Source: SAR324 cluster bacterium (GTDB taxonomy: Bacteria > SAR324 > XYD2-FULL-50-16). Taken from it: DNA of 53,541 bases. Under the pieces are notes generated by a model that was not told the origin of the DNA, made no database searches, and worked only from the letters and a program-made list of their open reading frames with translations. Every line of letters starts with the position of its first letter. Positions within the stretch are counted from its first letter, which is position 1. Positions 22,648-43,591 of this stretch are shown one piece after another. Location: the NCBI GenBank assembly GCA_033791585.1, contig JASJGK010000145.1, positions 1-53,541 on the forward strand, written 5' to 3'. Position numbers and translations under genes: made by a program.

Positions 22648-22983
22648 ATGAGTATGGAAGTAAACGGAGTGACAATCGAACTAGATGATGACGGTTATTT
22701 AATTGATCGAAACCAGTGGACCGAAGAAATTGCATCAGCTCTTGCTGAAACAGAAGATGTTGTGATGACTGACAAGCATTGGGAACTAATCAAGTTTTTA
22801 CGTTCTTATTACGAAGAATACCAAATTGCACCAATGATCAAAATTTTAGCCAAAGAAATTGCTAAGCTTTATGACATTGATAAAAGAGCCGGATCAAAAA
22901 TGCTATATGAGTTGTTTCCAAGTGGACCAGCCAAGCAAGCTTGTAAGGTTGCAGGATTACCTAAGCCTACTGGCTGTGTGTAA
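22648..22983 (+). CDS. dsrC: DsrC (sulfur-carrier substrate protein of DsrAB)
   Basis: 111 aa with the TusE/DsrC fold pattern. The C-terminal arm CKVAGLPKPTGCV carries both redox cysteines (penultimate Cys and a Cys 11 residues upstream), which distinguishes DsrC from TusE/RspA-type homologues. Confidence 0.9.
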   Translation: MSMEVNGVTIELDDDGYLIDRNQWTEEIASALAETEDVVMTDKHWELIKFLRSYYEEYQIAPMIKILAKEIAKLYDIDKRAGSKMLYELFPSGPAKQACKVAGLPKPTGCV

Positions 22984-23022
22984 AATTATTTAATTAACAT
23001 AGATCACAAGATTTAAGGAGAA

Positions 23023-24210
23023 ATGATGGCAGAAAGTGAAACTCCTCTCTTAGATGAGCTTTTAAAGGGCAAATGGCCTAGCTTTATCAAAGAGATGAAA
23101 GACATGGCTGACACAAAGCCCATGGTACGTGACGTACTAAGGCAACTGGAACAGTCATACAGAGACAAAAAAACCCACTGGAAGCATGGTGGTATTGTTG
23201 GTGTTAAAGGTTACGGCGGTGGTATCATCGGTCGTTACTCTGACTCACCTGAAAAATTTCCAGGTGCGGCGCACTTTCACACTGTTAGAGTTAACCAGCC
23301 TGCTGGTTGGTTTTACAGCTCCGAAGCTCTTCGTGAACTATGTGATATATTTGAAAAATACGGTTCTGGTTTAACCAACATGCATGGTTCCACTGGTGAC
23401 ATTATTCTTCTAGGAACTACTACTGATGAATTAGAACCAATCTTTTCAGCTTTGACTGAAAAAGGCTGGGATTTAGGTGGTTCTGGTTCTGCTTTAAGAA
23501 CTCCTTCTTGCTGCGTTGGACCTGCAAGATGCGAATGGGCAATGTTCGATTGCTTAGACGTTTGTCACGAGTTGACTCACTTTTACCAAGATGAAATCCA
23601 TCGCCCTGCATTCCCTTACAAATTTAAAATTAAAGTATCTGGCTGCCCTAACGATTGTGTTTCTGCAATCGCTAGATCTGACTTTTCCATTATCGGAACT
23701 TGGAAAGATGATATCATCATCGACCAAGAAGAAATGAGAAAATACCACGCAGAAGGTAAAGACATTTTAAGAAGTGCCGTTATGCTTTGCCCAACTCGTG
23801 CTATCGAGTGGGATGGTGAAAACATTGAAATTGACAATGAAAACTGTGTTCGTTGTATGCAATGTATCAACGCATTTCCAAAGGGCTTAGCTCCAGGAAA
23901 CGTACGTGGTGCCACTATTTTACTTGGGTCAAAAGCACCAATTGTGCAGGGCGCATTATTTAGTTCTGTTTTGATTCCTTTTATGGAAATCGAAGAAGGC
24001 TATGCTGAAATCAAAGATGTTCTAGAAAGAGTTTGGGATGTTTGGGATGATCACGGCGAAAATAAAGAAAGAATCGGTGAATTAGTAGAAAGAATGGGTA
24101 AAGGTGAATTCCTTGAGCAAGTTGGAATCGAGCCTGACGTTCAGATGGTATGCCACCCAAGAGAAAATCCCTATGTATTCTATGATGAATACCTAGAAGA
24201 AGAAGATTAA
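23023..24210 (+). CDS. dsrA: Dissimilatory sulfite reductase alpha subunit
   Basis: Blocks [83 protein letters not shown]. Ferredoxin insert CPTRAI...CVRCMQCIN. The second ATG at 23026 has better SD spacing (AAGGAG at 23015-23020). Confidence 0.95.
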
Positions 24211-24234
24211 CGGAACAACTGGTTTAAGGAAAAA

Positions 24235-25308
24235 ATGAACGCTAGAAAAACAGATATCGGGTGTCCCGATTATAAGAAATTTTTACCGCCTGTTGTCCAT
24301 GCCAACTATGGCAAGTGGAAGTATCATGAGGTGTTAAAGCCTGGTGTAACTGTACACGTTGGTCACTCAGGTGATAAGTTATTTACCGTAAGAGTAGGTA
24401 GCCCACGACTTTTAAGTGTAAAATCAATCAGATTCTTCTGCGATATGGCAGATAAGTATTGTGAAGGATTTTTACGTTTTACTTCAAGAAGTAACATTGA
24501 GATGTTAACTGCTACAGAAGAAAACATCGAGCCTATGATCAAAGAGATCGAAGCTGCTGGATGGCCTGTTGGCGGAACTGCAAACTCAATCTCAAACATT
24601 ATTCACACACAAGGTTGGGTGCATTGTCACACTTCTGCAACTGATGCCTCTGGTTTGGTAAAATCAGTGATGGATGACTTGTATGATGATTTTGTTTCTC
24701 ATGGTGTCCCAGGACGTTTAAAGCTAGCTGTTGCCTGTTGTCTAAACATGTGTGGCGCTGTACACGCTTCTGATATCGCTATTTTAGGTATCCACCGTCG
24801 CCCACCAAAGGTAGACAGTGAAGCCTTAACTAACTTCTGTGAAATCCCAACAACAATTGCTGCCTGCCCAACTGGCGCGATTCGAGCTGACATCACTGAA
24901 GATGGTCAAAAGACACTAAAAATTAATGAGTCACAGTGTATGTACTGTGGTGCTTGTTACACAGCTTGCCCTAAGTTACCAATTGCTGATGCGTTAAACG
25001 ACGGTCTTTCAATTTGGGTTGGTGGTAAATGTGCAAATGCTCGTAGTATCCCTCAGTTTACAAAGATGGTAGTGCCTTGGATTCCTAACAATCCACCTCG
25101 CTGGCCTGAAGTTGTTGAAGCTGTTCGGACTATTGTAGATGTTTACAAAGAACATGGTAAACCTTGGGAGAGAATGGCTGATATGATTGATCGTATTGGT
25201 TGGGCTCGTTTCTTTAAGCTTACAGGCTTTGAGTTTACTAAGTACCATATTGACGATTATAAACTGGCTACTAAAAGCTTTAACGCATCCATGCACTTAC
25301 GTTTTTAG
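24235..25308 (+). CDS. dsrB: Dissimilatory sulfite reductase beta subunit
   Basis: 357 aa, directly after dsrA. Sulfite-reductase hemoprotein fold with Cys clusters ([18 protein letters not shown]). Ferredoxin insert CPTGAI...[12 protein letters not shown]. Confidence 0.95.
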
Positions 25309-25317
25309 GAGAACTAA

Positions 25318-25563
25318 ATGGCAGTTGAAACTCAAACAATCGCTGACGCTATGTTAGCAATGGTTGTAGAAGCAGCGGGTAAAAAAAGATATAAGCCCGG
25401 TGACTTATCCAAAGCTATGATTAAGCAATTTGGTGAAGATGTTAGCAAAAGAGACTGTAAAGACGCGATTCGTATCTTAGTTGATGGCGAAAAGTTGGTT
25501 TACACTTATTTTAACGGAACTTGGTTGGAAATTCCTCACGAGGAAGGCTCAGCTAAGTCATAA
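25318..25563 (+). CDS. dsrD: DsrD-like small winged-helix protein
   Basis: 81 aa, 9 bp after dsrB with SD AGGAG, which is the canonical dsrD position. GKKRYKPGDLSK...VSKRDCKDAIRILVDGEKLVYTYFNGTWLE parallels Desulfovibrio DsrD as I recall it (KSKFYFNDF...KQREVKKILTALVNDEVLEYWSSGSTTMY). Divergent. Confidence 0.6.
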   Translation: MAVETQTIADAMLAMVVEAAGKKRYKPGDLSKAMIKQFGEDVSKRDCKDAIRILVDGEKLVYTYFNGTWLEIPHEEGSAKS

Positions 25564-25576: not shown

Positions 25577-25942
25577 ATGTTTACAATTACTGAAAAAGCT
25601 GCAGAGCAGTTTTCAGCAGCAAAGGCTGGCATGAATGAAGAAGGCCTTGCATTAAGGCTTACCGCTCGTCGTGATCCTGTCGTTGGTATTGAATACAATA
25701 TGGGATTTGACACAGCAAAAGAGAATGATAAGAAATACAATCTCTTGGGTGTTGATTTTCTTTTGGATTCTGAAACTGATGTGAATATAGACAAAACCGT
25801 TATTGATTTTGGGCCACTTGATGGTGGCTCTGATCAATTTATTTTCTTCAACCCACAAGATGCGAAAGAAACAAGAGACGCTGCTACCTGTAGCACAACT
25901 CCTGGTTCTGACTCTTGCGGGACTGGATGCTCTTGTTCCTAA
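25577..25942 (+). CDS. HesB/IscA-like (A-type carrier fold) protein with an atypical C-terminal Cys cluster
   Basis: MFTITEKAAEQF...GLALRLTARRD...YNMGFD...DFLLDSET...IDF matches the HesB/IscA pattern, but the first conserved Cys (GCSG position) is absent. The tail is CSTTPGSDSCGTGCSCS. Start at ATG 25577. Its TAA overlaps the next ATG (TAATG at 25940-25944). Confidence 0.6.
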   Translation: MFTITEKAAEQFSAAKAGMNEEGLALRLTARRDPVVGIEYNMGFDTAKENDKKYNLLGVDFLLDSETDVNIDKTVIDFGPLDGGSDQFIFFNPQDAKETRDAATCSTTPGSDSCGTGCSCS

Positions 25943-26454
25943 TGAACCCTCAAACTCATCTGGAATCCAAAAAGTCTGAGATCGTCCTACAGTGGCGGTC
26001 TCAGGTTTTTTCTCTTTACGGAGAAGAATCCAAAAAAATCTTAAAAAGAAACAAAGCAGAGTATCTAAACCCAATGGGTGCAAGGTTTTCAACAAGCTTT
26101 GAAGAATTGTTTGAATGTGTTTTGACACGTGCAGGCAAAGACCAACTTGACCCTATCTTAGAGCAGGTAATTCGCTTTACTGCTGTTCAAGAAGGAACCC
26201 CCTCTAGCTCTTTAAATTTTTTGTTTGTCTTGAAGAAGATTGTAAATAAAGAATTGGAATCAGCTGGAATTACTGAGATTGATAGTAGCCTCAATACCTA
26301 CTTTGATCGCCTGATTAAATTCGGAATTGACCATCTTGTGGCCTCAAGAGAATTTATCGCAAAATTAAAAGTCGAAGAAATGGAGAGAAAAACCTATTCT
26401 TTGATCAAACTTCTAAATAGTCAAAAACCACCTATCCTCGAAGGAGAAGCTTGA
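25942..26454 (+). CDS. dsrT: DsrT (RsbRD N-terminal-domain protein)
   Basis: 170 aa immediately upstream of dsrM. W..QVF..Y......L.....EYLNPMG resembles the RsbRD_N/DsrT signature (F.NPVG). Translationally coupled on both sides. Confidence 0.6.
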   Translation: MNPQTHLESKKSEIVLQWRSQVFSLYGEESKKILKRNKAEYLNPMGARFSTSFEELFECVLTRAGKDQLDPILEQVIRFTAVQEGTPSSSLNFLFVLKKIVNKELESAGITEIDSSLNTYFDRLIKFGIDHLVASREFIAKLKVEEMERKTYSLIKLLNSQKPPILEGEA

Positions 26455-27527
26455 AAGTTATCGTACCCCTTATTTTAGTAGGGTTTCTCGCTCAAGTAGC
26501 ACACTTTGGAACTAGTACCTTTGGCCTTCATAGCCTTTTTGGTATCTGGATTCCCTACTTTGCTTTTATCGTATTTTTAACAGGTTTTGTTTATAAAATT
26601 TTAGATTGGGCAAAATCACCAGTACCCTTTTCTATTGTTACAACAGCTGGCCAAGCCAAGTCATTAGACTGGATTCCAGCCAACAACCTTGAAGCACCCC
26701 ATAACACCATGGGAGTCGTTCTCCGTATGGCTTTGGAAGTTTTATTTTTCCGCTCTTTATTCCGCGGGACTAAAGCACATATGTCTGAGGGACCAAGGTT
26801 AACCTATACTTCTGACAAGCTACTTTGGCTTGGCGGCATGGCCTTCCATTGGTCAATGTTAATTATTCTACTTAGACACTACCGATTTTTTATTGATCCA
26901 GTTCCAGGATTTGTAACAGCCATTGAAGCTGTTGATGGATTTTTTGAAATCATTGTCCATAGCCCTATTCACGACGTAACTCTACCGGGTCTCTTTATTA
27001 CCGACTTGTTAATTTTGGCCTCTGTTGGCTTTTTGTTATCTCGAAGGTTGTTAGACCCTAAAGTAAAGTTCATGTCTTTACTCCAAGATTATTTCCCTCT
27101 TTTCATGATTCTAGCCATTTCCATTAGTGGTATTCAAATGCGCTATTTGACTAAGGTGGATATTGTTGGTGTAAAAAACTTGATTCAGTCTATTACGCAC
27201 TTTGCGCCTGATAGCTCCATTACAGTGGGGCCTATTTTTTATGTGCATATCTTTTTAGTTTCTGTTTTTGCAATGTACTTCCCTTTTTCAAAGTTGATGC
27301 ATGCTGGTGGGGTCTTTTTTAGCCCAACAAGAAACATGAAGAACAACACTCGTGAAGTACGTCACATCAACCCTTGGAACCCTGATATTAAAATTCGGAC
27401 TTACATGGAATATGAAGATGATTACCGAGACAAAATGAAAGCTGCTGGGTTGCCTCTAGAAGTTCAGCCTGCACCAAAAGAAACAGCCCCAAAAGCTGAG
27501 CCAGTAAAGGAGAAAAAAGATGAGTAA
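26451..27527 (+). CDS. dsrM: DsrM (NarI-like dihaem b membrane subunit)
   Basis: TTG start overlapping the dsrT stop (TTGA). Multi-TM with SPVPFSIVTTAGQAKSL and EVLFFRSLFRGTK blocks typical of DsrM/HmeC. Confidence 0.85.
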   Translation: MKVIVPLILVGFLAQVAHFGTSTFGLHSLFGIWIPYFAFIVFLTGFVYKILDWAKSPVPFSIVTTAGQAKSLDWIPANNLEAPHNTMGVVLRMALEVLFFRSLFRGTKAHMSEGPRLTYTSDKLLWLGGMAFHWSMLIILLRHYRFFIDPVPGFVTAIEAVDGFFEIIVHSPIHDVTLPGLFITDLLILASVGFLLSRRLLDPKVKFMSLLQDYFPLFMILAISISGIQMRYLTKVDIVGVKNLIQSITHFAPDSSITVGPIFYVHIFLVSVFAMYFPFSKLMHAGGVFFSPTRNMKNNTREVRHINPWNPDIKIRTYMEYEDDYRDKMKAAGLPLEVQPAPKETAPKAEPVKEKKDE

Positions 27528-29157
27528 GTATGCTCCTGATCCAAAGGATATGGCCGCCGAGATGGGCGCTGATTACCTGACTAAAGATCTGAAAGGTAAA
27601 CAAGAAAACTGGATGGAAACGGTTCCCCAGTTTAAAGACGGAAACTGGTGTTATGCACCTGCTCCCGAAGTAGTTGAGTCCTTAGGTTTACCTCACGGAA
27701 GAAAGTGGAGCCCCATTGATGATGATTGGGATCTGCCGGAAAACTTTAAAGAAATAGTTCATGAAGGCATCAAAGAAAGACTAGGTAAAAACCGAGCTTT
27801 CAAGCTTTTTATGGATACTTGTGTGCGCTGTGGTGCATGTGCCGATAAATGCCATTTCTTTTTGGGTACAGGTGACGCTAAAAACATGCCTGTCATGCGT
27901 GCCGAATTGATGAGATCTGTTTATCGAGGTGATTTTACCTTGGCTGGCAAGATCATGAAAAAAATGGTCGGTGGTCGTGAACTGACTCCTGATGTTATCA
28001 AAGAATGGTATTCTTACTTTTACCAGTGTACCGAATGTAGACGTTGTAGTGTCTTTTGCCCTTATGGGATTGATACTGCTGAAATCACTATGATGGCCCG
28101 CGAAATACTAAACCTGATTGGTGTAAATCTAAATTGGATTTTAAAACCTGCAAGCGATTGTAACAGAACTGGTAACCACTTAGGGATTGAGCCTCATACC
28201 TTTGTTCAGGTTGTTGAGTCCTTGTGTGACGATATTGAAGACATTACAGGCATCACTATTGAGCCTAGCTTTAACCGTAAAGGGGCTGAAGTTTTATTTA
28301 TAACCCCATCGGGTGATGCTTTTGCTGAACCGGGTATCTACACGATGATGGGTTATATGCTGCTTTTTGAGCATATTGGTCTGGATTATACCTTTTCGAC
28401 CTATGCGAGTGAAGGTGGTAACTTTGGTCTCTTCACAGGTAATGAAGTGATGAAAAAACTCAATGCTAAGATGTACCATGAGGCCGAGCGCCTTGGGGTG
28501 AAGTTTATCATTGGTGGAGAATGTGGCCACATGTGGCGAGTTGTACACCAGTATATGGATACCATGAACGGGCCTGCACCTTTCTTAGATGTACCTGTCT
28601 CCCCGATAACGGGAACGGTATTTGAAAATGCAAAGTCCACTAAAATGGTCCACATCGCTGAATTTACAGCCGACTTAATTAAACATGGCAAGTTGAACCT
28701 TGACCCAAGTCGCAACGATCATTTTAATGTTACCTTTCACGATTCCTGTAATACTGCACGAGGTATGGGAATGCTTGAAGAACCAAGGTACATATTAAAC
28801 AATGTTTTAAATAACTTTCATGAAATGCCAGAAAAAACCATTAAGGAGCTAACATTCTGTTGTGGTTCTGGTTCGGGTTTGAATACAGAAGAATACATGG
28901 ATGTCAGGATGAGAGGCGGCTTTGCACGTGCAAGCGCTGTTGAACATGTTGCCAAAAAACACGGGGTTAATACCTTGACTGCTGTTTGCGCCATTGACCG
29001 TGTAACTTTAACGGCTGCCATGAAATATTGGGTGCCAGGTGTGCAAGTTTCTGGTCTCCATGAACTTGTTGGTAACGCCCTAATTATGGAAGGTGAAAAA
29101 GAGCGTGATGAAGACTTACGTGAAGAACCCTTGGCAGGTGTGGAGGACGACGAATGA
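27520..29157 (+). CDS. dsrK: DsrK (HdrD-like catalytic FeS subunit)
   Basis: Ferredoxin motifs CVRCGACADKC and CTECRRCSVFCP. CCG-domain cysteines (FHDSCNTARG, TFCCGSGSG). 8-bp overlap with dsrM. Confidence 0.9.
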   Translation: MSKYAPDPKDMAAEMGADYLTKDLKGKQENWMETVPQFKDGNWCYAPAPEVVESLGLPHGRKWSPIDDDWDLPENFKEIVHEGIKERLGKNRAFKLFMDTCVRCGACADKCHFFLGTGDAKNMPVMRAELMRSVYRGDFTLAGKIMKKMVGGRELTPDVIKEWYSYFYQCTECRRCSVFCPYGIDTAEITMMAREILNLIGVNLNWILKPASDCNRTGNHLGIEPHTFVQVVESLCDDIEDITGITIEPSFNRKGAEVLFITPSGDAFAEPGIYTMMGYMLLFEHIGLDYTFSTYASEGGNFGLFTGNEVMKKLNAKMYHEAERLGVKFIIGGECGHMWRVVHQYMDTMNGPAPFLDVPVSPITGTVFENAKSTKMVHIAEFTADLIKHGKLNLDPSRNDHFNVTFHDSCNTARGMGMLEEPRYILNNVLNNFHEMPEKTIKELTFCCGSGSGLNTEEYMDVRMRGGFARASAVEHVAKKHGVNTLTAVCAIDRVTLTAAMKYWVPGVQVSGLHELVGNALIMEGEKERDEDLREEPLAGVEDDE

Positions 29158-29537
29158 TTTATAATAAAGCAGTTGTAATCCCAGTCCTGATCATTTTTGT
29201 GGCCTTAATTACCTTTCCTTTTTGGAAGGGTGGTTTACCCCATAAACCAGCTCCCAAAATTGCAGTTCAGACAGATGTAAAATGTGTGGAGTCAGCGGAG
29301 TGGATGCGGGCTAACCATATGAAACTTTTAGATGAATGGCGGCATTCAGTGGTTCGTGAACAGAACCGTGAATACACTTCAACAGCGACTGGCAAGGTTT
29401 TTAATAAGAGTTTGGTTAACACCTGTCTCGATTGCCATTCGAATAAGTCAGAATTTTGTGATAGTTGCCACACTTACGCCTCTGTGAAGCTGAATTGTTT
29501 TGGCTGTCACGTAAACCCTGAGATGCTAAAAGAATGA
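29154..29537 (+). CDS. dsrJ: DsrJ (trihaem cytochrome c)
   Basis: Signal anchor plus three CxxCH motifs (CLDCH, CDSCH, CFGCH). An upstream Cys (KCVES) could be the unusual Cys haem ligand. ATGA overlap with dsrK. Confidence 0.85.
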   Translation: MIYNKAVVIPVLIIFVALITFPFWKGGLPHKPAPKIAVQTDVKCVESAEWMRANHMKLLDEWRHSVVREQNREYTSTATGKVFNKSLVNTCLDCHSNKSEFCDSCHTYASVKLNCFGCHVNPEMLKE

Positions 29538-30316
29538 AAAAGGAACGACGAGATTTTATCAAACAGGCAGGCTTTGTAGGTGCTGCTGTTGTGACAGGTG
29601 GCGCTGCTGTTGTTACTAGTGGGATTTTAGCCCCTACTACGGCGAATGCAAGCTCAGGTCACGAGGTCACTGATTCAGACCAACCTCGCTTGGGGATGGT
29701 TATTGATATGACCAAGTGTAAAGAAGAGTGCAACGATTGTAGTGATATTTGCCACTCTGTGCATAATGTTCCAGACCATGGAAATCCTAAAGACGAGATC
29801 AAATGGATCTGGAAAAATGAATATGAAAGGGTCTTTACTGATAAGTCCCACCAATATGTGTCTCAAGACTTAAAACAAAAGCCTTTCCTCACCATGTGTA
29901 ACCACTGTGACGACCCCCCTTGCGTGAAAGTATGCCCCACCAACGCTACCTTTAAACGTAACGATGGCATTGTGCAAATGGACTTTCACCGCTGTATTGG
30001 TTGCCGTTTTTGTATGGCTGGCTGCCCTTATGGTTCCAGATCTTTTAACTGGATTGAGCCGAGACCTGCAATTAAAGAAATCGATTCAAGTTTTCCAACC
30101 CGCGAAAGGGGCGTTGTGGAAAAGTGTAACTTTTGTGCAGAATTAATAGACAAGGGCGAAAAACCTGCCTGTGTCACGACCTGTAAAGAAGGCGCATTGA
30201 TATTCGGTGATTTAAACGATCCCAACTCGGAAATTCGAAAAGTCTTAGAGACAACAAAAACGATCCAACGCAAACCTGGACTCGGCACTAAGCCTAGCGT
30301 CTTTTACGTGGTATAA
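29534..30316 (+). CDS. dsrO: DsrO (Tat-exported FeS ferredoxin subunit)
   Basis: Twin-arginine signal [12 protein letters not shown]. PsrB/NrfC-like Cys clusters ([30 protein letters not shown]...CVTTC). ATGA overlap with dsrJ. Confidence 0.85.
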
Positions 30317-30321
30317 TTACA

Positions 30322-31476
30322 ATGATAGAAAAAGGATTAACAGGCAGTAAAACCTATATGACATGGCTAGGGCTTTTGGGCTCTCTCATGGCAGTGGGTG
30401 CCTATGGTTATAAACAACAACTAGACTATGGTCTAGGGATAACAGGCATGGGCCGTGATATCTCTTGGGGTATCTATGTTGCGCAGTTTACCTTTATGGT
30501 AGGCGTTGCAGCGTCAGCGGTTATGTTGGTTTTACCCTATTACCTCCACAATTTTAAAGCTTTTGCTAAGATTGTAGTTTTAGGTGAATTCCTAGCCGTT
30601 TCAGCTGTGGTTATGTGTATTTTATTTATTTTTGTGGATCTAGGTAAGCCTTCACGAATTTTAAACGTGATGCTTTACCCCACCCCACATTCCATGCTTT
30701 TTTGGGATATGTTGGTGCTCAATGGTTACTTGATTCTCAATACCCTTTGTGGGCGAGTGGTCTTAAAAGCTGAAAGGCAACAGGTTCCACCTCCGAAATG
30801 GATCAAGCCTTTTATTTTGCTTTCTATTCCCTGGGCATTTTCTATCCACACAGTAACTGCATTTTTATTTGCAGGGTTGCCTGGTCGCCACCTTTGGCTT
30901 ACAGCCATCTTGGCACCAAGGTTCTTAGCCTCAGCATTTGCGGCAGGCCCAGCTTTGCTGATTCTGTTAGCCTTGTTAGTGAAAAGAATTGCAGATTTTG
31001 ATGCGGGGAAAGCAGCCTTTGATAAATTGATTACCATCGTAACTTACGGGTCTATTGCGAATTTCTTTTTTATCGGTTTGGAATTCTTTACAGCATACTA
31101 CAGTAACATCCCTAGCCACATGCACAGCTTAGAATATTTATATTTTGGGCTAGATGGTAAAACTGCTTTAGTGCCTTTTATGTGGACCTCCACATTTTTA
31201 GGCCTTGGTGCCATTGGCTTATTCTTATACCCCAAGACACGTGATAACGAGACTTTACTGGCCATTGCCTGTGCTGGCATCTTTATTTCTCTCTGGATAG
31301 ATAAGGGCATTGGCTTAATCATCGGTGGTTTTGTCCCTAATGCGTTTGAAGAAGTGATAGAATATCAGGTTACAGGAGTAGAAATTTCCATTGTTGTGGG
31401 CATTTGGGCCACTGGTATTTTTGTCTTGTCCGTGTTATTCAAGAGTGCAATCGACATTAAAAAAATTCACGAATAG
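30322..31476 (+). CDS. dsrP: DsrP (NrfD/PsrC-like integral membrane quinone-interacting subunit)
   Basis: 384 aa with about 10 TM and an NrfD-like pattern. Last member of the dsrMKJOP order. Confidence 0.85.
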
Positions 31477-31976: not shown

Positions 31977-32004
31977 AAAAAGAGGCGAAAGCCTCTTTTT
32001 TTTT
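31977..32004. terminator. Bidirectional intrinsic terminator (dsr operon versus rhlE)
   Basis: Stem AGAGGC/GCCTCT (31981-31986 / 31991-31996) with a GAAA loop. An A-run lies upstream and a T8 run downstream. Confidence 0.75.
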
Positions 32005-35865: not shown

Positions 35866-36141
35866 CCTGAGTTACCTAAAATCACCACTCAGAGCGACTT
35901 GGAAAGGGAAAATACAGAACTAACTACATGGCTGCTGTGATTTATAGGGGGGCGAACTAACTTCCCTCAGCTGGGTAGGTTGGCGCTCTTATGATAGTCA
36001 AGAGCAAAGGATTTGTATTTATTTGAAATACCAAAATTTAGGCTTTAAATTTAAACTAAAAATCAAAACTCAAATTAAGGTAAGTTACTGGTGGGTTTTT
36101 AAATCTAGGATTATGGTCCTTGTGAACGCAAAATATTGAGC

Positions 36142-36171
36142 AAAAAAAAAGAGGCGTGAGCCTCTTTTTTT
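36142..36171. terminator. Bidirectional intrinsic terminator (ABC gene versus soe/dsrEFH operon)
   Basis: Same 6-bp stem AGAGGC/GCCTCT (36150-36155 / 36160-36165) with a GTGA loop, flanked by A9 and T7 runs. Confidence 0.75.
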
Positions 36172-36240
36172 GGGTTTGTTTTAAGAACCAACTACAAATG
36201 ATAAACCACCACCAGATAAAATCCAGTGCTCAAGAAAAGA

Positions 36241-37116
36241 TTACTCTACTTGCGCCTGCATTTTAGCAAGTAAGCCTCTAGTTATTTCCACTTGGTCCAA
36301 CCAAGTTTGGCAGCTAGGCAGTTTGATCGCTTTCAGCTCATCGCTCCATTCCTTGGTTACTTCCTGCAAACCACTCAGCAAAGGGATAGCTTTACTATAA
36401 TCAATGGATGAGAAAATTAAACTAGGTAGGATCTGTGATCGTGTGCCAAAACCAAAGGGAACCTCTAACTGGTTAGCCAACTTTTTTAATCTGAATTGCG
36501 TCAAATAAAAGCCACAAAGCCCAGGGGTCAATAGATATTTCGCAATATCTTTCAAGCCTGTTTCAGGGTTTTCTAAGATCTCTTGCTCTAGCTTGGGCAA
36601 CTCAGGGGGAAAAAGCCCTGGATTTAGCTCTTTATATAGCTTTTGGCTTACATCTAGAAGATGGTTAGCTAAGTGGCTAAAAAAGAAGTTCTCTGTCTGT
36701 TTTAAGGCAATAGCAAAGATCGGTAACCAAGTTAAAACCTGAGAAGATAGAAATTGACCAGCTTCGGCCTTTCGGCCCTCTTTGAGTAGGACAATTAAAT
36801 AGGAAATTTCTGTAGCGATATGGTCAGGGGTGCCTTTTGGGTACCAGTGGCCAGCTCGATAAGCATCGTTAACATGTTCAAAAGCATCGCCGCCCATTTG
36901 ACCCAGTTCATCGAAATAAACTGAGGCATAGGGGGAAACTTCAAGACCAAGAGCCTGATAATGGTCTGCACCAAATTCGTCTCTTGGGTCATCGAATTCT
37001 TGGTATCTTTGATTCCAAGATTCGATTAGGGGGGAAGAGTCGAAATTTTCGGGAATTCGACCCTCTAAAAGTTCTGCAATAATGCAAAGTTCTTGCAACA
37101 TATTATTAGCGACCAA
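36241..37116 (-). CDS. TorD/NarJ-like molybdoenzyme chaperone domain protein with an extra C-terminal region
   Basis: The N-terminal ~140 aa have the TorD-family pattern, including PDHIATEISYLIVLL. 11-bp overlap with the upstream molybdoenzyme gene. C-terminal ~150 aa unassigned. Confidence 0.5.
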   Translation of the reverse strand: MVANNMLQELCIIAELLEGRIPENFDSSPLIESWNQRYQEFDDPRDEFGADHYQALGLEVSPYASVYFDELGQMGGDAFEHVNDAYRAGHWYPKGTPDHIATEISYLIVLLKEGRKAEAGQFLSSQVLTWLPIFAIALKQTENFFFSHLANHLLDVSQKLYKELNPGLFPPELPKLEQEILENPETGLKDIAKYLLTPGLCGFYLTQFRLKKLANQLEVPFGFGTRSQILPSLIFSSIDYSKAIPLLSGLQEVTKEWSDELKAIKLPSCQTWLDQVEITRGLLAKMQAQVE

Positions 37117-40057
37117 ATGGCTTTTCAGGAAGTACGTAGGCTTCTTTCGTTGGCTTCAATGGTCTATTATACCACATTGGCCGTCTTGTGCCATCGGGGC
37201 TATGATCGACAGCAGAACGAGTTTTAGCAACCCACTTCTGATATACTTCCATGGACTTGTTGGTGTCAACCCAAACATCTCCATAAGAATCTGTTGCCTC
37301 GGCTTTTTTTACATTAAGCGCTTTTTGGTGCCAGCAATGGGCGCCACTGACTGGGTCAGGCTGAGCTGCGTGAGTTAGATTTTGGTTTACACCAACATCT
37401 TCCCACCAAACTCGACTGGTGTCAGGGTCCCAAGACTTCCAAGGTTTACCCATTTGTTTGATTTTAAGGGTGCACTCACCGTTTTCTTTTTCTTCAATAT
37501 CAACAACCGAAGCCATACCTGAGCCAATTCCTTGGCCAGTTGCGGCTGTTCCACTGGTCTTCCAGCGGCCGAGGTGGTGAGAACAGGCAACAACACCAGG
37601 CTTAATGCCTTCTGTCACAAATGCCTTATCTACAAAGTAACCAATCTCGGTTTCTACCCTTACGAGTTCACCAGCGGCAACGCCAATTCTTTTTGCGTCA
37701 CTAGGGTGAATCCAAAGTGGATTGTTGTGGCTAATTTCATATAACCACTTACAGTTTGCACTTCTGGTGTGAATCAAAGTTGGCAGACGGAAGTTAGGTA
37801 GGAGAATCATCTCCCCCTTTTCTCGGTCTATGTGGCTTTGGTGCACGTGGGATTCTAGTTGCCAAGGAATAGTGTATTCCTTTTCAGGCCAGCCCCAGTC
37901 TTTCATAGTAGCACTGAAAAATTCTAACTTCTTTGACGGAGTATTGAACCCAACTGTTGCTACACCTTCAACCATGTTGCCTTTGACAACGCCTTTTTCA
38001 TCAACAGCTCTACCAGCTGCATCAGCATTGTATTTACCAACTAACTCAGCGGCAAAAGGCTGGTAATGATCTTTTTTCACTTCATAAACTGCATACCTGC
38101 GCATGTACTCTAAAGGAGTCAAACCTTCTTCTTTCGCCTTTTCAGGAAGCCCTGGTACAGAGTTTTCAAAAATCCACTGCCAGTACTCATTTTGAGTAAT
38201 GATTTCGCCTTCACGATAAGGGCTCATGAAGTGTTTTTTGATTCCTAAAGCACCGTCTTCATCCATTTTCACAGATAAGGCTGTCCAGAATTCTGCTTCT
38301 TCCCAGACTTCACCTGGGTTAGACTCATAGGTGTATTTAATATCAATGCCAGCTTTTTCCATGGCCACTCTACGTACAGGTTGCCTAAAAGCAATCCACT
38401 GGCCAGCGTGAGTCTCTTGACTCATTAAATCATGCCGTTCGCCTGCGTGGCCCATTGGAAGAATATAATCGGCATACCATGCTGACTCGTTCCAAGTAGG
38501 GGTTAAGGCAACGTGGCACTTCATTTTTTCTTCGTCTTGCAGAGCCTTCATCCACATAAACCCATCCGGGTTAATCCAAAGTGGGTTGTAGACACGAGTG
38601 AAGTAAACATCAATCTCGCCTCTGCCTTCTTCTAAGAAGTGAGGAAGTAAAAAGCTCATTTCATAAAATGACATTGGCCATTCATGGGGCATGTGCAATT
38701 CATTCCAAGTATCTGTGTGTGGCGGTTCGTCAAAAGGCTTAGGAACAAATTTGTTCCAACTATTGCCACTAACTCCACCTTTGTTGCCAACAGAACCAGT
38801 CAATACATTTAAAAAGAACAGGGTTCTTGCTACTTGCCAGCCACCTAAGTGAGCCATAGAAGCGGCACGCCATACGTGTGTGGAAAGTTTGCCTTCGGCT
38901 TCGCTTACGGCTATAGCCATATTCTCTAAAATCTTCGCATCAATCTGGCATTCTTTGGCAGCCATCTCAAAATTAAAGGGAGCATAGGTCGCTTTTAAAA
39001 ACTTATCAAAGGTATCATAGTCTTCTAGTAATTTCGCATCAGCGGCAATTGCCTGCTGTAGCGCTTTTAGGTCGGGAGTGTTTGCCAACTCGTTACTAGT
39101 TGAAAATTCTTTTAAAGTATCGGCCCAGTTAACCCAGTTCTTTACAAATTCTTTATCGTAAAGATCATTTTCCAGTAAATAATTGGCAATAGATAGGATC
39201 ATGGTCGGCTCACTACCTGGCCAAACTGGCGCCCAAATATCTGACTTGGATGCTGTGTTTGAAAGGCGAGGGTCAACTGTAATCAACTTGGCACCCTTCA
39301 TTTTAGCTTCAATAATTCGCTGGGCATGAGGGTTAAAATAATGACCTGTTTCTAAGTGCGAAGAAATCAATAAAATTGTCTTAGCATTAGAATAGTCGGG
39401 GCTTGGTCGATCAAAACCAGACCACTGGAAATAACCAGATCTGGCTGCAGCCGAGCAAATATTTGTGTGACTGTTGTGAGAATCCGTTCCCCAAGCCTTA
39501 ATGACTCGGTTGGTGTAATGATCTTCGCCAGGGCGACCAACATGGTAGCAAATGCCATCTTTTCGCTTCTTGCGACTTGCGGCCATTTTTTCACCGATTT
39601 CAGCTAAAGCTTCGTCCCAAGTGATGCGCTTCCATTTACCTTCACCACGTTTACCAACTCTTTTTAGAGGGTGCATGATGCGTTCTGGATCATAAATCTG
39701 GTTGTGGGTAGCTGGCCCTTTGGCGCAGTTACGGCCACGTGAACCTGGGTGCACGGGGTTTCCTTCAAATTTTCTGATCTCAAAATTTTGCTTATCTACA
39801 TAGGCTAATAAACCACAGGCAGACTCACAGTTAAAACAAACGGTAGGCACTAGCTGGTAATTTTTAGCAACTTGCTTGGGCCATGATTTAGCGTCCCATT
39901 CTGTCCAGTCATCCCAATGCTCACAGGGTGGGTGGCTGGTCATACGACCATCACCATGACGAATATGATTTAACTCTAAAGGTTTTTTATCGGAATCCAC
40001 AAAAGAGGGGACACCGTAAGCATGACCTGATGTTAGGTTTTCGTGTTTCTTGTCCAT
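37106..40057 (-). CDS. soeA: Cytoplasmic molybdopterin (bis-MGD) oxidoreductase catalytic subunit, SoeA-like (candidate sulfite:quinone oxidoreductase)
   Basis: 983 aa. N-terminal [4Fe-4S] motif CFNCESACGLL...GRNCAKG. Complex iron-sulfur molybdoenzyme (DMSO reductase family) fold. No RR/Tat signal in the first 60 aa. The size (~110 kDa) and missing signal match SoeA. High confidence for the Mo-oxidoreductase call, moderate for Soe. Confidence 0.65.
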   Translation of the reverse strand: MDKKHENLTSGHAYGVPSFVDSDKKPLELNHIRHGDGRMTSHPPCEHWDDWTEWDAKSWPKQVAKNYQLVPTVCFNCESACGLLAYVDKQNFEIRKFEGNPVHPGSRGRNCAKGPATHNQIYDPERIMHPLKRVGKRGEGKWKRITWDEALAEIGEKMAASRKKRKDGICYHVGRPGEDHYTNRVIKAWGTDSHNSHTNICSAAARSGYFQWSGFDRPSPDYSNAKTILLISSHLETGHYFNPHAQRIIEAKMKGAKLITVDPRLSNTASKSDIWAPVWPGSEPTMILSIANYLLENDLYDKEFVKNWVNWADTLKEFSTSNELANTPDLKALQQAIAADAKLLEDYDTFDKFLKATYAPFNFEMAAKECQIDAKILENMAIAVSEAEGKLSTHVWRAASMAHLGGWQVARTLFFLNVLTGSVGNKGGVSGNSWNKFVPKPFDEPPHTDTWNELHMPHEWPMSFYEMSFLLPHFLEEGRGEIDVYFTRVYNPLWINPDGFMWMKALQDEEKMKCHVALTPTWNESAWYADYILPMGHAGERHDLMSQETHAGQWIAFRQPVRRVAMEKAGIDIKYTYESNPGEVWEEAEFWTALSVKMDEDGALGIKKHFMSPYREGEIITQNEYWQWIFENSVPGLPEKAKEEGLTPLEYMRRYAVYEVKKDHYQPFAAELVGKYNADAAGRAVDEKGVVKGNMVEGVATVGFNTPSKKLEFFSATMKDWGWPEKEYTIPWQLESHVHQSHIDREKGEMILLPNFRLPTLIHTRSANCKWLYEISHNNPLWIHPSDAKRIGVAAGELVRVETEIGYFVDKAFVTEGIKPGVVACSHHLGRWKTSGTAATGQGIGSGMASVVDIEEKENGECTLKIKQMGKPWKSWDPDTSRVWWEDVGVNQNLTHAAQPDPVSGAHCWHQKALNVKKAEATDSYGDVWVDTNKSMEVYQKWVAKTRSAVDHSPDGTRRPMWYNRPLKPTKEAYVLPEKPFGR

Positions 40058-40063: not shown

Positions 40064-41611
40064 TTAACTGTTAGGAATATGTTGTGGAGCCATCACGAAG
40101 ATATGCTCATAAATATAAAGACCAACTAGAGCGAGCAATGCGCCAAGTGAAGGTTGCTTCAAGCCGATTAAAACGATGGGTAGAATATTACCAGCCAAGA
40201 TTGCACCACCCCAAAATAAATTCTTATATTTACCGTGGGTGATAGAATGAGCAGCAGCTTTCGCAGTGTCAGAAGCGTGATTCACGCCGAACTCACCAAG
40301 TAAAATCATCAGTAAATTGATCACAATCGCTATACTAAATCCGTGAAAAGCCATCTGTACAAAGTCAGGCTCGATTGGGGTAAATTCACCTAAAATCACC
40401 ACAAATGCACTTCCTGCCATCATAGCTTGAGTGAAGAAATGAAAAGGTAACAATGGGCTTTGCCAGAAGTCTCTACCCTCTGCCTGAGCAAAGAGATAAG
40501 CTGTGTAGATAGCAGCACCAATTGCAAGGGGGAAACCACCTAAGAAGGCAACTTCTCTGATAAGACCTAAATCCATGTCGATTAATCCTAGCAACACCGC
40601 AGTTTCAGCGGCCCACCAAGCACCTGTTAAGGTACTAAAGGAAATGAGGATGTAAGCACCACGAACCAGCCAAGATTTCCATTGTGGCTGGAATACAACC
40701 CTTAAAAATCTTTCAGGTTTCTCTAAATCCCAAACTAAAAAGACGGTTGTGAGTAGTGTAAAAGCAACAACGGCACCGCCAGCAATTACATTTGTCATTG
40801 AGTCAAGGTTAGCCATTCCGTAAATGAAGGCCATAGCCATCAACATAAAGATACCTGTGGCAATGCCCTTGGTAACTAAATAGGCTGGTACTTGCCAATG
40901 CCATGGTATGCTGTGTCTCGTGTTATAAGTTGTTTGGCACATTTGAGAACCGTCACCCATGTATAGAGTGGGGTTTTCATCGACATGTTGGTCCATGTTA
41001 GTTTCGCTTACATCAGACCATAAAAATTGTTTTGATGTACTCATGGTAACAGTTGGTGTCAAAGCAGCTTGGTGACCATCAATGTAAAATACCTTAGGTG
41101 ATGTACCCTGTTCTGGTTTTCTTACAGTCACGTTATTAGCGGCGATTGTTGTGGATATTTCTGAAGTTGGGTCGTCGATATCACCAGCAATAATTGCATG
41201 GGTAGGACAAATAACCGCACAAGCAGGCTCCATTCCACGGTCAACGCGGTGGGCACAATAGTGACACTTCTGAGCGGTTCCCGTTTCAGGGTCGATATAG
41301 ATAGAGTTATAAGGGCAGGCCTGCATACAGGACTTACAACCAATACATTGGTCAGAATTATAACCAACGATACCATCATCTCTTTGGGTCATTGCTGAAA
41401 CGGGGCAGATTTCAACACAAGGTGGGTTTGCACACTGATTACAGCGATTCACTTGGAAGTTTCTTCTCACATTGGGGAAATTTCCTACTTCCGTATATTT
41501 TACCCAAGTACGAAAGACCCCTAAAGGGACTTGGTTTTCACTTTTGCATGCAGTTGAGCAAGCATGACAACCAATACACTTTCGGTTGTCAATGACAAAG
41601 CCGTAATTCAT
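40064..41611 (-). CDS. Fusion of a four-cluster FeS subunit (SoeB/PsrB-like) with an NrfD-type membrane anchor (SoeC/PsrC-like)
   Basis: Residues 1-~200 carry CIGCHACSTAC, CNQCANPPCVEICP, CIGCKSCMQACP, CHYC...CAVICP. Residues ~235-515 are about 8 TM, NrfD-like. No signal peptide. 6 bp upstream of the Mo subunit gene. Confidence 0.7.
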   Translation of the reverse strand: MNYGFVIDNRKCIGCHACSTACKSENQVPLGVFRTWVKYTEVGNFPNVRRNFQVNRCNQCANPPCVEICPVSAMTQRDDGIVGYNSDQCIGCKSCMQACPYNSIYIDPETGTAQKCHYCAHRVDRGMEPACAVICPTHAIIAGDIDDPTSEISTTIAANNVTVRKPEQGTSPKVFYIDGHQAALTPTVTMSTSKQFLWSDVSETNMDQHVDENPTLYMGDGSQMCQTTYNTRHSIPWHWQVPAYLVTKGIATGIFMLMAMAFIYGMANLDSMTNVIAGGAVVAFTLLTTVFLVWDLEKPERFLRVVFQPQWKSWLVRGAYILISFSTLTGAWWAAETAVLLGLIDMDLGLIREVAFLGGFPLAIGAAIYTAYLFAQAEGRDFWQSPLLPFHFFTQAMMAGSAFVVILGEFTPIEPDFVQMAFHGFSIAIVINLLMILLGEFGVNHASDTAKAAAHSITHGKYKNLFWGGAILAGNILPIVLIGLKQPSLGALLALVGLYIYEHIFVMAPQHIPNS

Positions 41612-41747: not shown

Positions 41748-41984
41748 CTATTTGCTCTGAATCCAATAAGTGAAAATTTCACCATCATCTTCAGATTTTA
41801 AAATAGGGTTTCCTGTTCGTTCAGACCAACTAGGCATATCCTTGATAGAACCCTTGTCGGTACAAACCATTCTTAGGACTTGACCCGTGGTTAATCCATC
41901 AACAGCTTTTTTAGTTTTCAAAACAGGTAGTGGGCAGCTAAGACCTTTGCAGTCTAGCTCTAGATCTACTTTAATATCATTCAT
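41748..41984 (-). CDS. tusA: TusA-family sulfur carrier
   Basis: 78 aa with DCKGLSCPLPVLKTKKA (the CPxP active-site motif). Confidence 0.85.
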   Translation of the reverse strand: MNDIKVDLELDCKGLSCPLPVLKTKKAVDGLTTGQVLRMVCTDKGSIKDMPSWSERTGNPILKSEDDGEIFTYWIQSK

Positions 41985-42008
41985 GTTCAGTTCCTTTAAT
42001 GTTAAATT

Positions 42009-42518
42009 TTAGGTAAAAAGTTGAATATCTGAATCAGCAGCGAAATCTAAAAAGTTCGCAGCACCAGCATAGTTGACTCCTTCAACAAAGTCTTCCTTTT
42101 CATAACCAAAAACGTCCATGGTCATGGTACAGGCGATCATTTCGACTCCGATATCTATACAAAGGTCACGTAATTCTGGTACAGAAGCTACACCTTTGTT
42201 CTTAAAAGTTTTCTTCATCAAGCTAGTTGAGAAAGACTCAAATCCTGGTACGTTACCCATCAAAGCATTAGGTATAGGCCAGTTGATGTTTTGAAACCAC
42301 TTTGGCCCAAAAGGCATCTTCATAGGCATAGCTGGGTTAGCTTGTGGGGCAATTATTCCTTCATAGTCTGTTCTTAAAACATCAAGACCGTAAAAGGTAT
42401 AAAAAATCTTTACTTCCATATCCATGGCTGCGGCGGCACTACCTAATATTAAAGGTGGGTAAGCCCAATCCAAGGTTCCTTGTGTTGCAATTAAAGCAAC
42501 TTTTTTTTGTCCAGACAT
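42009..42518 (-). CDS. DsrE-family sulfurtransferase (DsrE3/COG2210-like)
   Basis: 169 aa. The N-terminal VALIATQGTLDWAYPPLILG and MIACTMTMDVFG Cys motifs are typical of the soluble DsrE3-type proteins that pair with TusA. Confidence 0.65.
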   Translation of the reverse strand: MSGQKKVALIATQGTLDWAYPPLILGSAAAAMDMEVKIFYTFYGLDVLRTDYEGIIAPQANPAMPMKMPFGPKWFQNINWPIPNALMGNVPGFESFSTSLMKKTFKNKGVASVPELRDLCIDIGVEMIACTMTMDVFGYEKEDFVEGVNYAGAANFLDFAADSDIQLFT

Positions 42519-42552
42519 CGTTTCTCCCTAAAAAAACGGTTAAGTAACTAAT

Positions 42553-42846
42553 TTAAAGCCAAGAATTGACTTGATGCTTTTCTGCAAGTTCAACAAAACC
42601 AGCATAGTCGATAACTTTGACTTGATCACAAAGAACACTAATGCCCCTTGCCTTTAAGTCTGAACTTAAAGCGTAAAAGTCATTGGTTGCGGAGTGTTGA
42701 GCTAATTGACCTGAAACTTTACTTGAACATTGCGCAGCATATACACCATCTTCAATAAGTAAAATTGGGTCGCCTTCTTGTGCAAACTTAAGACAAGTGT
42801 CGAAGCTGTCTGCTGAAAAAGGGCTTTTATTAATTGTGTGTAACAT
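42553..42846 (-). CDS. dsrH: DsrH
   Basis: 97 aa. MLHTINKSPF start typical of DsrH/TusB, with a Cys at position 18 (DsrH-type). Third gene of the E-F-H order. Confidence 0.75.
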   Translation of the reverse strand: MLHTINKSPFSADSFDTCLKFAQEGDPILLIEDGVYAAQCSSKVSGQLAQHSATNDFYALSSDLKARGISVLCDQVKVIDYAGFVELAEKHQVNSWL

Positions 42847-42860
42847 ATTGGACCTTCCGA

Positions 42861-43229
42861 TTAATGATGAATTAGAACATCTTGCACAGCCATCAGCTTG
42901 CCAATGGCATCAGCTTCAAGAACCTGAACAGGAATAAAAAGATCTTCGACTTTTAGCCCACGATCTTCTAATGATTGCCTATCAACATAGATGTCTTCTA
43001 CGTCATAATCTTCTAAAACTCCAAGAGTTTTCATAAAGCCTTTGATCTGCAGCTCAGTTGTATCTTGGTCTTTCTTTAGAGAAAATATACCATCACCAAT
43101 AAAGGCCATGCTTATTTCTTGGTCATATGCGGCCATGATTAGAACCATTTCTAAACCTTCGTAGGTGTAGATTGTGCCGTGAGGTGCGGTTCTAACAATG
43201 TGCATCATTTTTTTTACGTTGTCATCCAT
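42861..43229 (-). CDS. dsrF: DsrF
   Basis: 122 aa with a DsrE/F fold and no active-site Cys, lying between dsrE and dsrH. Confidence 0.75.
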   Translation of the reverse strand: MDDNVKKMMHIVRTAPHGTIYTYEGLEMVLIMAAYDQEISMAFIGDGIFSLKKDQDTTELQIKGFMKTLGVLEDYDVEDIYVDRQSLEDRGLKVEDLFIPVQVLEADAIGKLMAVQDVLIHH

Positions 43230-43234
43230 CTACT

Positions 43235-43591
43235 TTAAGCTCCAAATGTAACTAAGCGGTCAACATCAATAGCGATATCGGTCAATTCACCGAGACCTGT
43301 GATTTCAGAGTGATCAGTCAAAAGACTATCTTCGATCCCTCTACGCTTACTTGCAGCGATGCAAGATAGGATTCTAACGCCTTTAGCGCCTAATTCAGAC
43401 CAACGGTTAGCTATATGCCTGTCGTCTTGAGGTGGGTCCATGAGTTTAGTGACGTTAATGACCCCGTCATTGTATAAAAATACAGAAGTTAAGGTGTGGC
43501 CTTTTTCCATCACTGCTTTCGCAAAGTGATACGCTGTGTCAGCTGCTTCGTGGTTATAAGGTCCTTCTTTTAATAAAATTGCAAATTTCAT
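43235..43591 (-). CDS. dsrE: DsrE
   Basis: 118 aa. MKFAILLKEGPY start, and an active-site Cys in ILSCIAASKRRG at the expected position (~Cys78). Confidence 0.8.
   Translation of the reverse strand: MKFAILLKEGPYNHEAADTAYHFAKAVMEKGHTLTSVFLYNDGVINVTKLMDPPQDDRHIANRWSELGAKGVRILSCIAASKRRGIEDSLLTDHSEITGLGELTDIAIDVDRLVTFGA

Follow-up and report, generated by a model that had tools for sequence, protein, structure and literature searches.

Organisms that carry both the reductive and the oxidative marker genes of the dissimilatory sulfite reductase (Dsr) system are central to how sulfur oxidation evolved from sulfite reduction, and they also put at stake the use of marker genes in assigning a direction to sulfur cycling in metagenomes. 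The closest described case is the 'mixed' gene set of SAR324 / Candidatus Lambdaproteobacteria (GTDB family XYD2_FULL-50-16). The occurrence of dsrEFH with dsrD in Ca. Lambdaproteobacteria was termed 'perplexing', with sat, apr and qmo absent (Anantharaman 2018, PMC6018805); DiSCo typed the lineage as 'mixed' and its authors listed contamination among the possible reasons (Neukirchen & Sousa 2021, PMC8477390); the gene set was then described as chimeric, with affinity to Chlorobi (Neukirchen 2023, PMC10504309); and two SAR324 XYD2_FULL-50-16 metagenome-assembled genomes (MAGs) were noted as exceptions that pair reductive DsrAB with DsrEFH (Diao 2023, PMC10591310). In a paper on SAR324 itself, DsrD and DsrEFH occur together in 10 of 31 genomes, DsrAB is placed between the reductive and the oxidative clade, and the group is interpreted as a remnant of the transition to oxidative Dsr (Klier 2024, PMC11406059). 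Here we analyze a 53,541-nt contig of a SAR324 cluster bacterium (JASJGK010000145.1; the whole stretch is called the window, and all coordinates are window positions), a clean contiguous SAR324 example that contains a reductive-like DsrAB core, a full oxidizer relay, and a linked enzyme of the sulfite-oxidizing type.

The window shares with the published SAR324 set its lineage, its operon order, a DsrA that is 84% identical to that of the RIFOXYD2 genomes, the combination of reductive-typed DsrAB, DsrD (in the window a DsrD-like protein) and DsrT with oxidative-typed DsrC and DsrEFH, and the lack of sat, apr and qmo. It differs in that dsrEFH is on the dsrAB contig in the window and in its nearest relative (L001), whereas the DsrD-encoding group of Klier 2024 has dsrEFH on a different scaffold; in that dsrL is not within the 53 kb, whereas it is adjacent in two relatives (L002 and L023); and in the link of a Soe-like enzyme to TusA and DsrE2, which is unmentioned in Klier 2024. 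An earlier reading made from the letters of the window (the sequence-only reading) held that this combination falls outside the standard described architectures. This was overstated because the mixture found in this lineage was published between 2018 and 2024, and for the same reason the locus is no new kind of system. What is added here is that both operons lie on one contig, in convergent orientation, in a low-GC sublineage (the window and L001); that dsrEFH-dsrE2-tusA is linked to a Soe-like enzyme; that a DsrR homologue sits within the dsr operon; and that the protein family in the dsrD position is not recognized by Pfam.

Three other described systems resemble the locus in part. The Allochromatium vinosum reverse Dsr (rDsr) pathway consists of dsrABEFHCMKLJOPNRS, rhd-tusA-dsrE2 and soeABC. 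Among solved structures, its DsrEFH, DsrC and DsrR come nearest to the window proteins. In both, tusA is paired with dsrE2 (a DsrE2-like gene in the window) and the molybdoenzyme of the sulfite-oxidizing type is cytoplasmic, without a twin-arginine translocation (Tat) signal. Unlike A. vinosum, the window encodes a DsrAB that does not appear to be of the oxidative type (~44-45% identical to oxidative references) and carries dsrT and a DsrD-like gene; it has no dsrL, dsrN, dsrS or rhd, its SoeB and SoeC are fused, and its dsrEFH lies outside the dsrAB operon. The dsr system of green sulfur bacteria also has dsrT, and a two-gene molybdoenzyme (a catalytic subunit and a fused iron-sulfur (FeS)/NrfD subunit) is found in Chloroherpeton, at 68% identity. 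The Lambdaproteobacteria/SAR324 proteins group with those of Chlorobia in trees of DsrN, DsrEFH, DsrMJOP, DsrC and DsrT (PMC10504309, PMC11406059), but chlorobial DsrAB is of the oxidative type and is not accompanied by a DsrD-like gene. Cable bacteria and Desulfurivibrio alkaliphilus have reductive-lineage DsrAB and DsrD together with a proposed TusA-DsrEFH-DsrC oxidation relay (Plum-Jensen 2026). Their DsrEFH is type II, however, whereas that of the window is the canonical type I (124 bits to A. vinosum DsrE); in the window a Soe-like enzyme, in place of Apr, Sat and Qmo, would dispose of sulfite, and DsrC is oxidative in type.

Layout of the locus and proposed pathway

Mapping of open reading frames (ORFs) on both strands and profile searches placed the genes in two convergent operons on the single contig, and the gene list and coordinates of the sequence-only reading were reproduced. 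Operon 1, on the + strand, has the order dsrC-A-B-orf81-dsrR-like-dsrT-M-K-J-O-P-orf137, with overlapping stop and start codons at the junctions already reported (TAATG at 25940, TTGA at 26451, ATGAGTAA at 27520, and ATGA at 29154 and 29534). Operon 2, on the - strand, consists of dsrE-F-H, a DsrE2-like gene, tusA, a fused soe(BC)-like gene, a soeA-like gene and a torD-like gene. G+C content is even along the window (0.37-0.45).

Five related loci (L001-L005) were collected by scanning one genome per species with DsrA. DsrA identity to the window is 98% in L001, 88% in L002, 86% in L003, and 84% in both L004 and L005; L002 and L003 are from MAGs, and L004 and L005 are from Candidatus Lambdaproteobacteria RIFOXYD2 genomes. 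The order dsrC-A-B-orf81-dsrR-T-M-K-J-O-P-orf137 is kept in all five. L001, which is ~87% identical to the window at the nucleotide level over the operon and 72-78% identical in the flanks, is classed as a separate species from the window organism. In both the window and L001, dsrEFH and dsrAB share a contig, with dsrEFH-bearing operon 2 at a distance of 0.9-4.3 kb from the end of the dsr operon. An NCBI MAG labeled 'SAR324 cluster bacterium' encodes a hypothetical protein with 100% identity to the orf81 product, which is also encoded on a 534,595-bp ENA contig. On these relationships the source is an uncultured member of SAR324 with kinship to 'Candidatus Lambdaproteobacteria', and it belongs to the 'mixed Dsr' group known from earlier work.

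The locus probably functions in the cytoplasmic oxidation of sulfur to sulfate, possibly reversibly, with a reductive-lineage DsrAB operating in reverse. The oxidative direction is preferred because the relay genes form one gene string with a molybdoenzyme that has no Tat signal; because MAG TamC13-09 keeps this linkage, in divergent orientation, beside SQR, rhodaneses, YeeE-like transporters and DsrL; because the Chloroherpeton homologue of the molybdoenzyme sits in a presumed sHdr context; and because the window encodes no Sat, Apr or Qmo, which are reported to be missing from the lineage as well (PMC6018805). The physical linkage of the genes argues against binning artefacts and favors an oxidative or reversible role.

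All steps of the pathway are drawn from homology and gene linkage. TusA and DsrE2 would hand sulfane sulfur to DsrE of the DsrEFH complex, which would pass it on to DsrC. The transitional, siroheme-containing DsrAB would then oxidize the DsrC-bound sulfur to sulfite, DsrMKJOP would transfer the electrons to quinone, and the cytoplasm-facing, quinone-linked Soe-like enzyme would oxidize sulfite to sulfate. The DsrD-like protein would leave it possible to run the system reductively, in sulfite reduction or disproportionation. A precedent by analogy may be found in cable bacteria, for which reverse use of reductive DsrAB with a DsrEFH relay was proposed; there, it was argued that reductive DsrAB can run in reverse given a DsrEFH relay (Plum-Jensen 2026).

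Sulfur relay genes and the Soe-like molybdoenzyme

The dsrE (43235-43591, - strand), dsrF (42861-43229, -) and dsrH (42553-42846, -) genes are adjacent, and their products score over the TusD/DsrE, TusC/DsrF and TusB/DsrH cutoffs, with 115 bits to TIGR03012 for DsrE, 124 bits to TIGR03010 for DsrF, and 101 bits to PF04077 and 109 bits to TIGR03011 for DsrH. The active-site cysteine of DsrE is in SCIAASKRRG and the DsrH cysteine is in DTCLKFA. DsrE scores 124 bits against A. vinosum DsrE (2hy5_A) vs 70 against Escherichia coli TusD, and DsrH scores 85 bits against A. vinosum DsrH vs 50 against E. coli TusB; DsrE Cys78 and DsrH Cys20 are aligned and conserved, and E. coli TusB is without the DsrH cysteine. 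The products were claimed earlier to be genuine DsrEFH, which these scores, far above those for TusBCD, and the two retained cysteines bear out. The alternative that the genes are tusDCB orthologues serving tRNA thiolation is therefore excluded. On this comparison, DsrEFH of the window is assigned to the canonical type I.

Downstream of dsrH is a gene for a DsrE2-like soluble sulfur carrier (42009-42518, -; PF13686, 162 bits). It had been labeled dsrE3, but its product scores best as DsrE2, with 195 bits over the full length of NF047629 (SulfCarrDsrE2), slightly under the cutoff of 210. The next gene, tusA (41748-41984, -), has 77 bits to PF01206 and the Cys-Pro motif LSCPLP. Pairing of tusA with dsrE2 is the usual arrangement in oxidizers. 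The gaps among dsrE-F-H-dsrE2-tusA are 5-34 bp, and 136 bp precede the soe(BC)-like gene; no terminator-like site was found on the - strand between tusA and the soe(BC)-like gene, and a promoter-like site is present 5' of dsrE (43683-43654).

Two products of operon 1 are also related to oxidizer proteins. DsrC (22648-22983, +; PF04358, 142 bits; TIGR03342, 145 bits) has a C-terminal arm with a Cys-X10-Cys spacing, CKVAGLPKPTGCV, and among solved structures it scores 124 bits against A. vinosum DsrC (1yx3), 104 against Archaeoglobus fulgidus and 82 against Desulfovibrio vulgaris, which suggests an oxidative-type DsrC. The gene that had been called HesB-like (25577-25942, +; start ATG 25577 according to the gene callers) encodes a 121-residue protein of the IscA fold that is instead a homologue of A. 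vinosum DsrR (PDB 2k4z_A, E 8.4e-15, residues 1-96), and its scores for Fe-S_biosyn and TIGR00049 are under cutoff. The gene is kept in L001-L005. The aligned span is the first ~95-96 residues of the protein in L002-L005 and 103 in L001, and the alignment with A. vinosum DsrR does not extend into a cysteine-rich C-terminal tail, CSTTPGSDSCGTGCSCS.

The molybdoenzyme is encoded by the three genes that follow tusA. The fused SoeB-like and SoeC-like subunit (40064-41611, -; 515 residues) contains a four-cluster ferredoxin (Fer4_11, residues 51-144) as its SoeB-like part and an NrfD membrane anchor (residues 230-487) as its SoeC-like part. The SoeA-like molybdopterin oxidoreductase (37106-40057, -; 983 residues) has Molybdop_Fe4S4, Molybdopterin and Molydop_binding domains and a CxxCxxxC motif at the N-terminus, and the TorD/NarJ-like maturation chaperone (36241-37116, -) matches PF02613 at 34 bits; a TorD-like gene also follows the catalytic subunit in L001, L023 and L024. 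Neither the SoeA-like protein nor the fused FeS/NrfD subunit has a Tat or Sec signal, and the active site is therefore predicted to face the cytoplasm. Among the best 120 SoeA-like homologues (64-94% identical, ~920-1040 residues), 0 have an N-terminal twin-arginine motif. The protein is under every NCBIfam equivalog cutoff, and its nearest PDB entry is PsrA (2vpw, 142 bits). The earlier identification as a Soe-like sulfite dehydrogenase thus holds in the sense that the enzyme is cytoplasmic and plausibly Soe-like by its domains, lack of a Tat signal and gene context.

The fused FeS/NrfD gene adjoins a homologous catalytic subunit in both L023 and L024. L023 belongs to TamC13-09, the MAG that also gave L003, and in it the enzyme genes are head to head with dsrEFH-dsrE2-tusA; beside the cluster are a type III SQR, rhodaneses, YeeE-like transporters, a TauE-family gene and DsrL. 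L024 (positions 44-12332, Chloroherpeton thalassium CP001100) has a SoeA-like homologue at 68% identity, along with the fused FeS/NrfD partner and a TorD-like chaperone. The enzyme genes of L024 come directly after GcvH-like, LplA-like and radical-SAM genes. We take these to be companions of an sHdr system, a cytoplasmic producer of sulfite, and the Chloroherpeton locus would then be a second kind of sulfur-oxidation context for the Soe-like family. PSRLC3 of green sulfur bacteria has been inferred in the literature to be a sulfite oxidase related to SoeABC. No direct statement was found in the literature on a SoeBC fusion or on PSRLC3 together with SoeABC. A fused BC subunit is presumably also a feature of PSRLC3, and the Chloroherpeton homologue may be PSRLC3 itself.

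DsrAB, the protein in the dsrD position and DsrL

DsrA (23023-24210, +; 395 residues) and DsrB (24235-25308, +; 357 residues) score well above the family cutoffs (TIGR02064, 554 bits, cutoff 393; TIGR02066, 494 bits, cutoff 342). Identity of DsrA is 55% to a DsrA from Desulfobaccales, 44% to the oxidative rDsrA of SUP05 phage Lau218, and 45% to P0299, an oxidative-like DsrA representative with 67% identity to that phage protein; by tblastn, identity to the phage rDsrA is 40% (290 bits). The best PDB matches are A. fulgidus 3mm5_A (543 bits) and D. vulgaris 2v4j_A (475 bits). A small neighbour-joining tree of 18 sequences was built from a 50%-identity representative library in which full-length DsrA sequences are few and poorly labeled. 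In this tree the clade of the window joins L006 and L008 with 93% support, and the node that unites these with Desulfobaccales to the exclusion of the oxidative pair has 38% support, which agrees with the placement of this DsrAB 'between' the reductive and oxidative types in Klier 2024.

The three peptide blocks of DsrA on which the sequence-only reading based its call of a reductive-looking DsrAB are present in the protein, and the motif argument holds because the nearest references and the solved relatives are reductive. The greater closeness to reductive references (55% vs 44-45%) stands; a robust placement within the reductive clade does not, at 38% support. DsrA of the window is best regarded as a reductive-like or transitional type.

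Directly 3' of dsrB is orf81 (25318-25563, +), which encodes a small winged-helix protein of 81 residues from a divergent DsrD-like family. Its family has at least 54 homologues of ~80 residues with 17 invariant columns, of which 0 have a Pfam domain, and a family gene is immediately 3' of dsrB at every locus examined. The AlphaFold2 (AF2) model is a confident winged helix (predicted local distance difference test score, pLDDT, 90.9) with the layout H-H-H-E-E. Foldseek matches the model to many generic winged-helix proteins, DsrD 1wq2/1ucr being among them at E ~0.03, and the template modeling (TM) score against DsrD 1wq2, normalized to the target, is 0.71. Sequence comparison with D. vulgaris (DvH) DsrD gives a weak local similarity in the expected register (z=4.5 over shuffles). 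Pfam searches at E<=10 gave no match to DsrD PF08679 for orf81 or for any of 34 family members, NCBIfam gave no match, neither PDB phmmer nor the family profile against PDB matched 1ucr, and hhalign against DsrD returned a probability of 0.4%. The description 'DsrD-like' given earlier to this ORF is thus retained for its position, size and winged-helix fold, and is dropped as regards membership of the Pfam DsrD family. No other DsrD candidate was found near dsrAB. DsrD has been reported in these genomes by surveys with custom hidden Markov models (PMC6018805, PMC8477390, PMC10591310, PMC11406059), a call that may refer to orf81, and DsrD is a known activator of sulfite reduction (Ferreira 2022).

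Members of the orf81 family also characterize a broader DsrAB clade, in which the order is dsrA-B-orf81like-dsrN-dsrL-dsrC-dsrT-MKJOP (L006, 7613-13918; L008, 7668-13862). In L006, aprBA and qmoAB are upstream, and one family member is labeled Gemmatimonadetes. As a speculation that we consider a long shot, the family could be a separate, unmodeled DsrD-like branch specific to the 'transitional' DsrAB clade (SAR324 and the group of L006 and L008) that tunes the direction or rate of a two-way DsrAB, and the sublineage with TusA-DsrE2-DsrEFH-Soe beside the dsr operon and no DsrL nearby could be a genuine two-way Dsr user. If so, it would represent a surviving intermediate stage in the evolution of Dsr-based sulfur oxidation.

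The remaining genes of operon 1 belong to the same core. The product of dsrT (25942-26454, +; 170 residues, on which the gene callers agree) matches PF14361 (RsbRD_N) at 43 bits, and its ATG start at 25942 lies in the TAATG overlap. The dsrM, dsrK, dsrJ, dsrO and dsrP genes (26451-31476, +) encode the membrane electron-transfer complex and are all over the NCBIfam cutoffs (NF038037, 470 bits; NF045796, 719; NF038038, 149; NF045797, 307; NF045798, 463), with a Tat signal on DsrO. The last gene, orf137 (31493-31906, +), has no Pfam or NCBIfam match. It is found directly 3' of dsrP in all five relatives, with 39-87% identity, and may be an undescribed dsr-operon gene of the SAR324/Lambdaproteobacteria lineage.

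Searches of the 53 kb by tblastn with the DsrL, DsrN, AprAB and QmoAB proteins of L006 found no dsrL, dsrN, aprAB or qmoAB, and Pfam scans of the other large ORFs of the window found no sat, apr, qmo, dsrL or dsrN, in agreement with the absences listed in the sequence-only reading. That reading went on to say that the organism lacks DsrL. This is valid for the window only because relatives and the literature show DsrL-2: dsrL is 3 kb upstream of dsrC in L002 and beside the soe-dsrEFH cluster in L023, and DsrL-2 is reported in Lambdaproteobacteria and in nearly all Dsr-encoding SAR324 (PMC10591310, PMC11406059). No dsrL was found within ±10 kb of dsrA in L001, L003, L004 or L005. A search with L002 DsrL gave no match on the ENA contig that bears the identical orf81, and the best candidates were from other samples or from a 2.2-kb contig. 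The 2.2-kb contig, L025 (58-2182; ENA ERZ25073493), has a SAR324-type dsrL followed by a rhodanese gene; its DsrL is 68% identical to that of L002, it comes from the ENA assembly series of the contigs with identical orf81, and its G+C content is 46% vs 41% for the window. DsrL is probably encoded elsewhere in the genome.

Direction of the pathway and neighboring genes

Several points weigh against reading the locus as a sulfur oxidizer. DsrAB is nearer to reductive than to oxidative enzymes, and no study of the enzyme has demonstrated that reductive DsrAB is reversible (Ferreira 2022, Plum-Jensen 2026). The protein in the dsrD position is strongly conserved, with its 17 invariant columns; the window has no dsrL, and the evidence that the genome encodes one is circumstantial; and the sister MAGs were read as reductive (Diao 2023, PMC10591310). 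SoeA-like homologues (47-54% identical) also occur in organisms not known as Dsr-type sulfur oxidizers, where they are encoded on large replicons (Thermomicrobium roseum, Rhodococcus jostii RHA1 and several haloarchaea).

Some of these points would fit a sulfite reducer or sulfur disproportionator, in which DsrAB and the DsrD-like activator would reduce sulfite derived from thiosulfate, organosulfonates or the environment, while the Soe-like enzyme, TusA and DsrEFH would serve in sulfite detoxification or in the oxidative half of disproportionation. Such an organism would account for the reductive-like DsrA, the highly conserved winged-helix protein and the TauE/SafE-family gene at 17185-17991, and the combination of DsrAB, DsrD and DsrL-2 has been explained by internally formed sulfite (Ferreira 2022). 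We nevertheless consider it unlikely: type I DsrEFH with its cysteines, an oxidative-type DsrC and DsrR have no known reductive role, and the relay is co-linear with an enzyme of the sulfite-oxidizing type and, in a relative, stands beside SQR, rhodaneses and YeeE-like transporters. Of the genomes that have type I dsrEFH, just 2.4% also have a reductive dsrAB, and they have been interpreted as transitional (Plum-Jensen 2026).

A bidirectional, redox-switched pathway is rather more doubtful still. One DsrAB/DsrC/DsrMKJOP core would work oxidatively with TusA, DsrEFH and Soe, and reductively with the DsrD-like activator, perhaps joined by DsrL-2. Both marker sets are present and conserved on one contig in at least two species, the modules are in separate operons that could be regulated independently, and switching is allowed for in the SAR324 paper (Klier 2024, PMC11406059); yet no organism has been shown to switch the direction of a single DsrAB (Ferreira 2022), and the keeping of both gene sets could be an evolutionary relic. 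An artefact, whether of binning, of chimeric assembly or of mistaking tusDCB for E/F/H, is very improbable, since a MAG source and the contamination listed by the DiSCo authors for mixed profiles (PMC8477390) have to be set against two operons on one contiguous sequence of G+C content 0.37-0.45, the same adjacency in an independent assembly of another species (L001, ~87% nucleotide identity), and DsrE and DsrH that match A. vinosum DsrEFH far above E. coli TusBCD, with a DsrH cysteine that is absent from TusB. An assembly chimera in particular is rejected on the even G+C content and the operon adjacency in L001.

The two operons of the proposed oxidizer are separated by a segment (32013-36255) that encodes a DEAD-box helicase and an ABC transporter in the window, and by ~0.9 kb with one small membrane ORF in L001. 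Strong terminator-like hairpins are found 3' of orf137 (31977-32000) and 3' of the TorD-like gene. The inter-operon segment is flanked by near-identical hairpins, AAAAAGAGGCG-loop-CGCCTCTTTTT, at 31977-32000 and 36144-36171, and the L001 counterpart is at ~18890-19740. The segments differ between the window and L001, which makes the content between the repeated terminators variable. Searches with the genes at the edges of the window gave no exact match, and no DsrA homologue was found in a plasmid search.

Large ORFs of the window outside both operons encode, by Pfam, signaling proteins, transporters, ribosomal protein S1, CysG and others. The TauE/SafE sulfite-exporter-family gene (17185-17991) is on the + strand and is 47% identical to the TauE-family gene that adjoins rhodanese and dsrL genes in L023. 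Beside dsrE are two tandem SulP-family transporter genes (44547-48064, +, and 48445-49857, -). Both were considered as sulfate exporters, which was rejected: the first scores as a DauA equivalog and is not clearly a sulfate permease. After the SulP genes comes a CysG-type siroheme synthase gene, which fits the siroheme demand of DsrAB. Protein identity between the window and L001 is uneven, with 98-100% for DsrA, DsrB, orf81 and DsrK and 80-86% for DsrT, DsrJ and DsrO, a pattern that may stem from strong differences in constraint or from past recombination.

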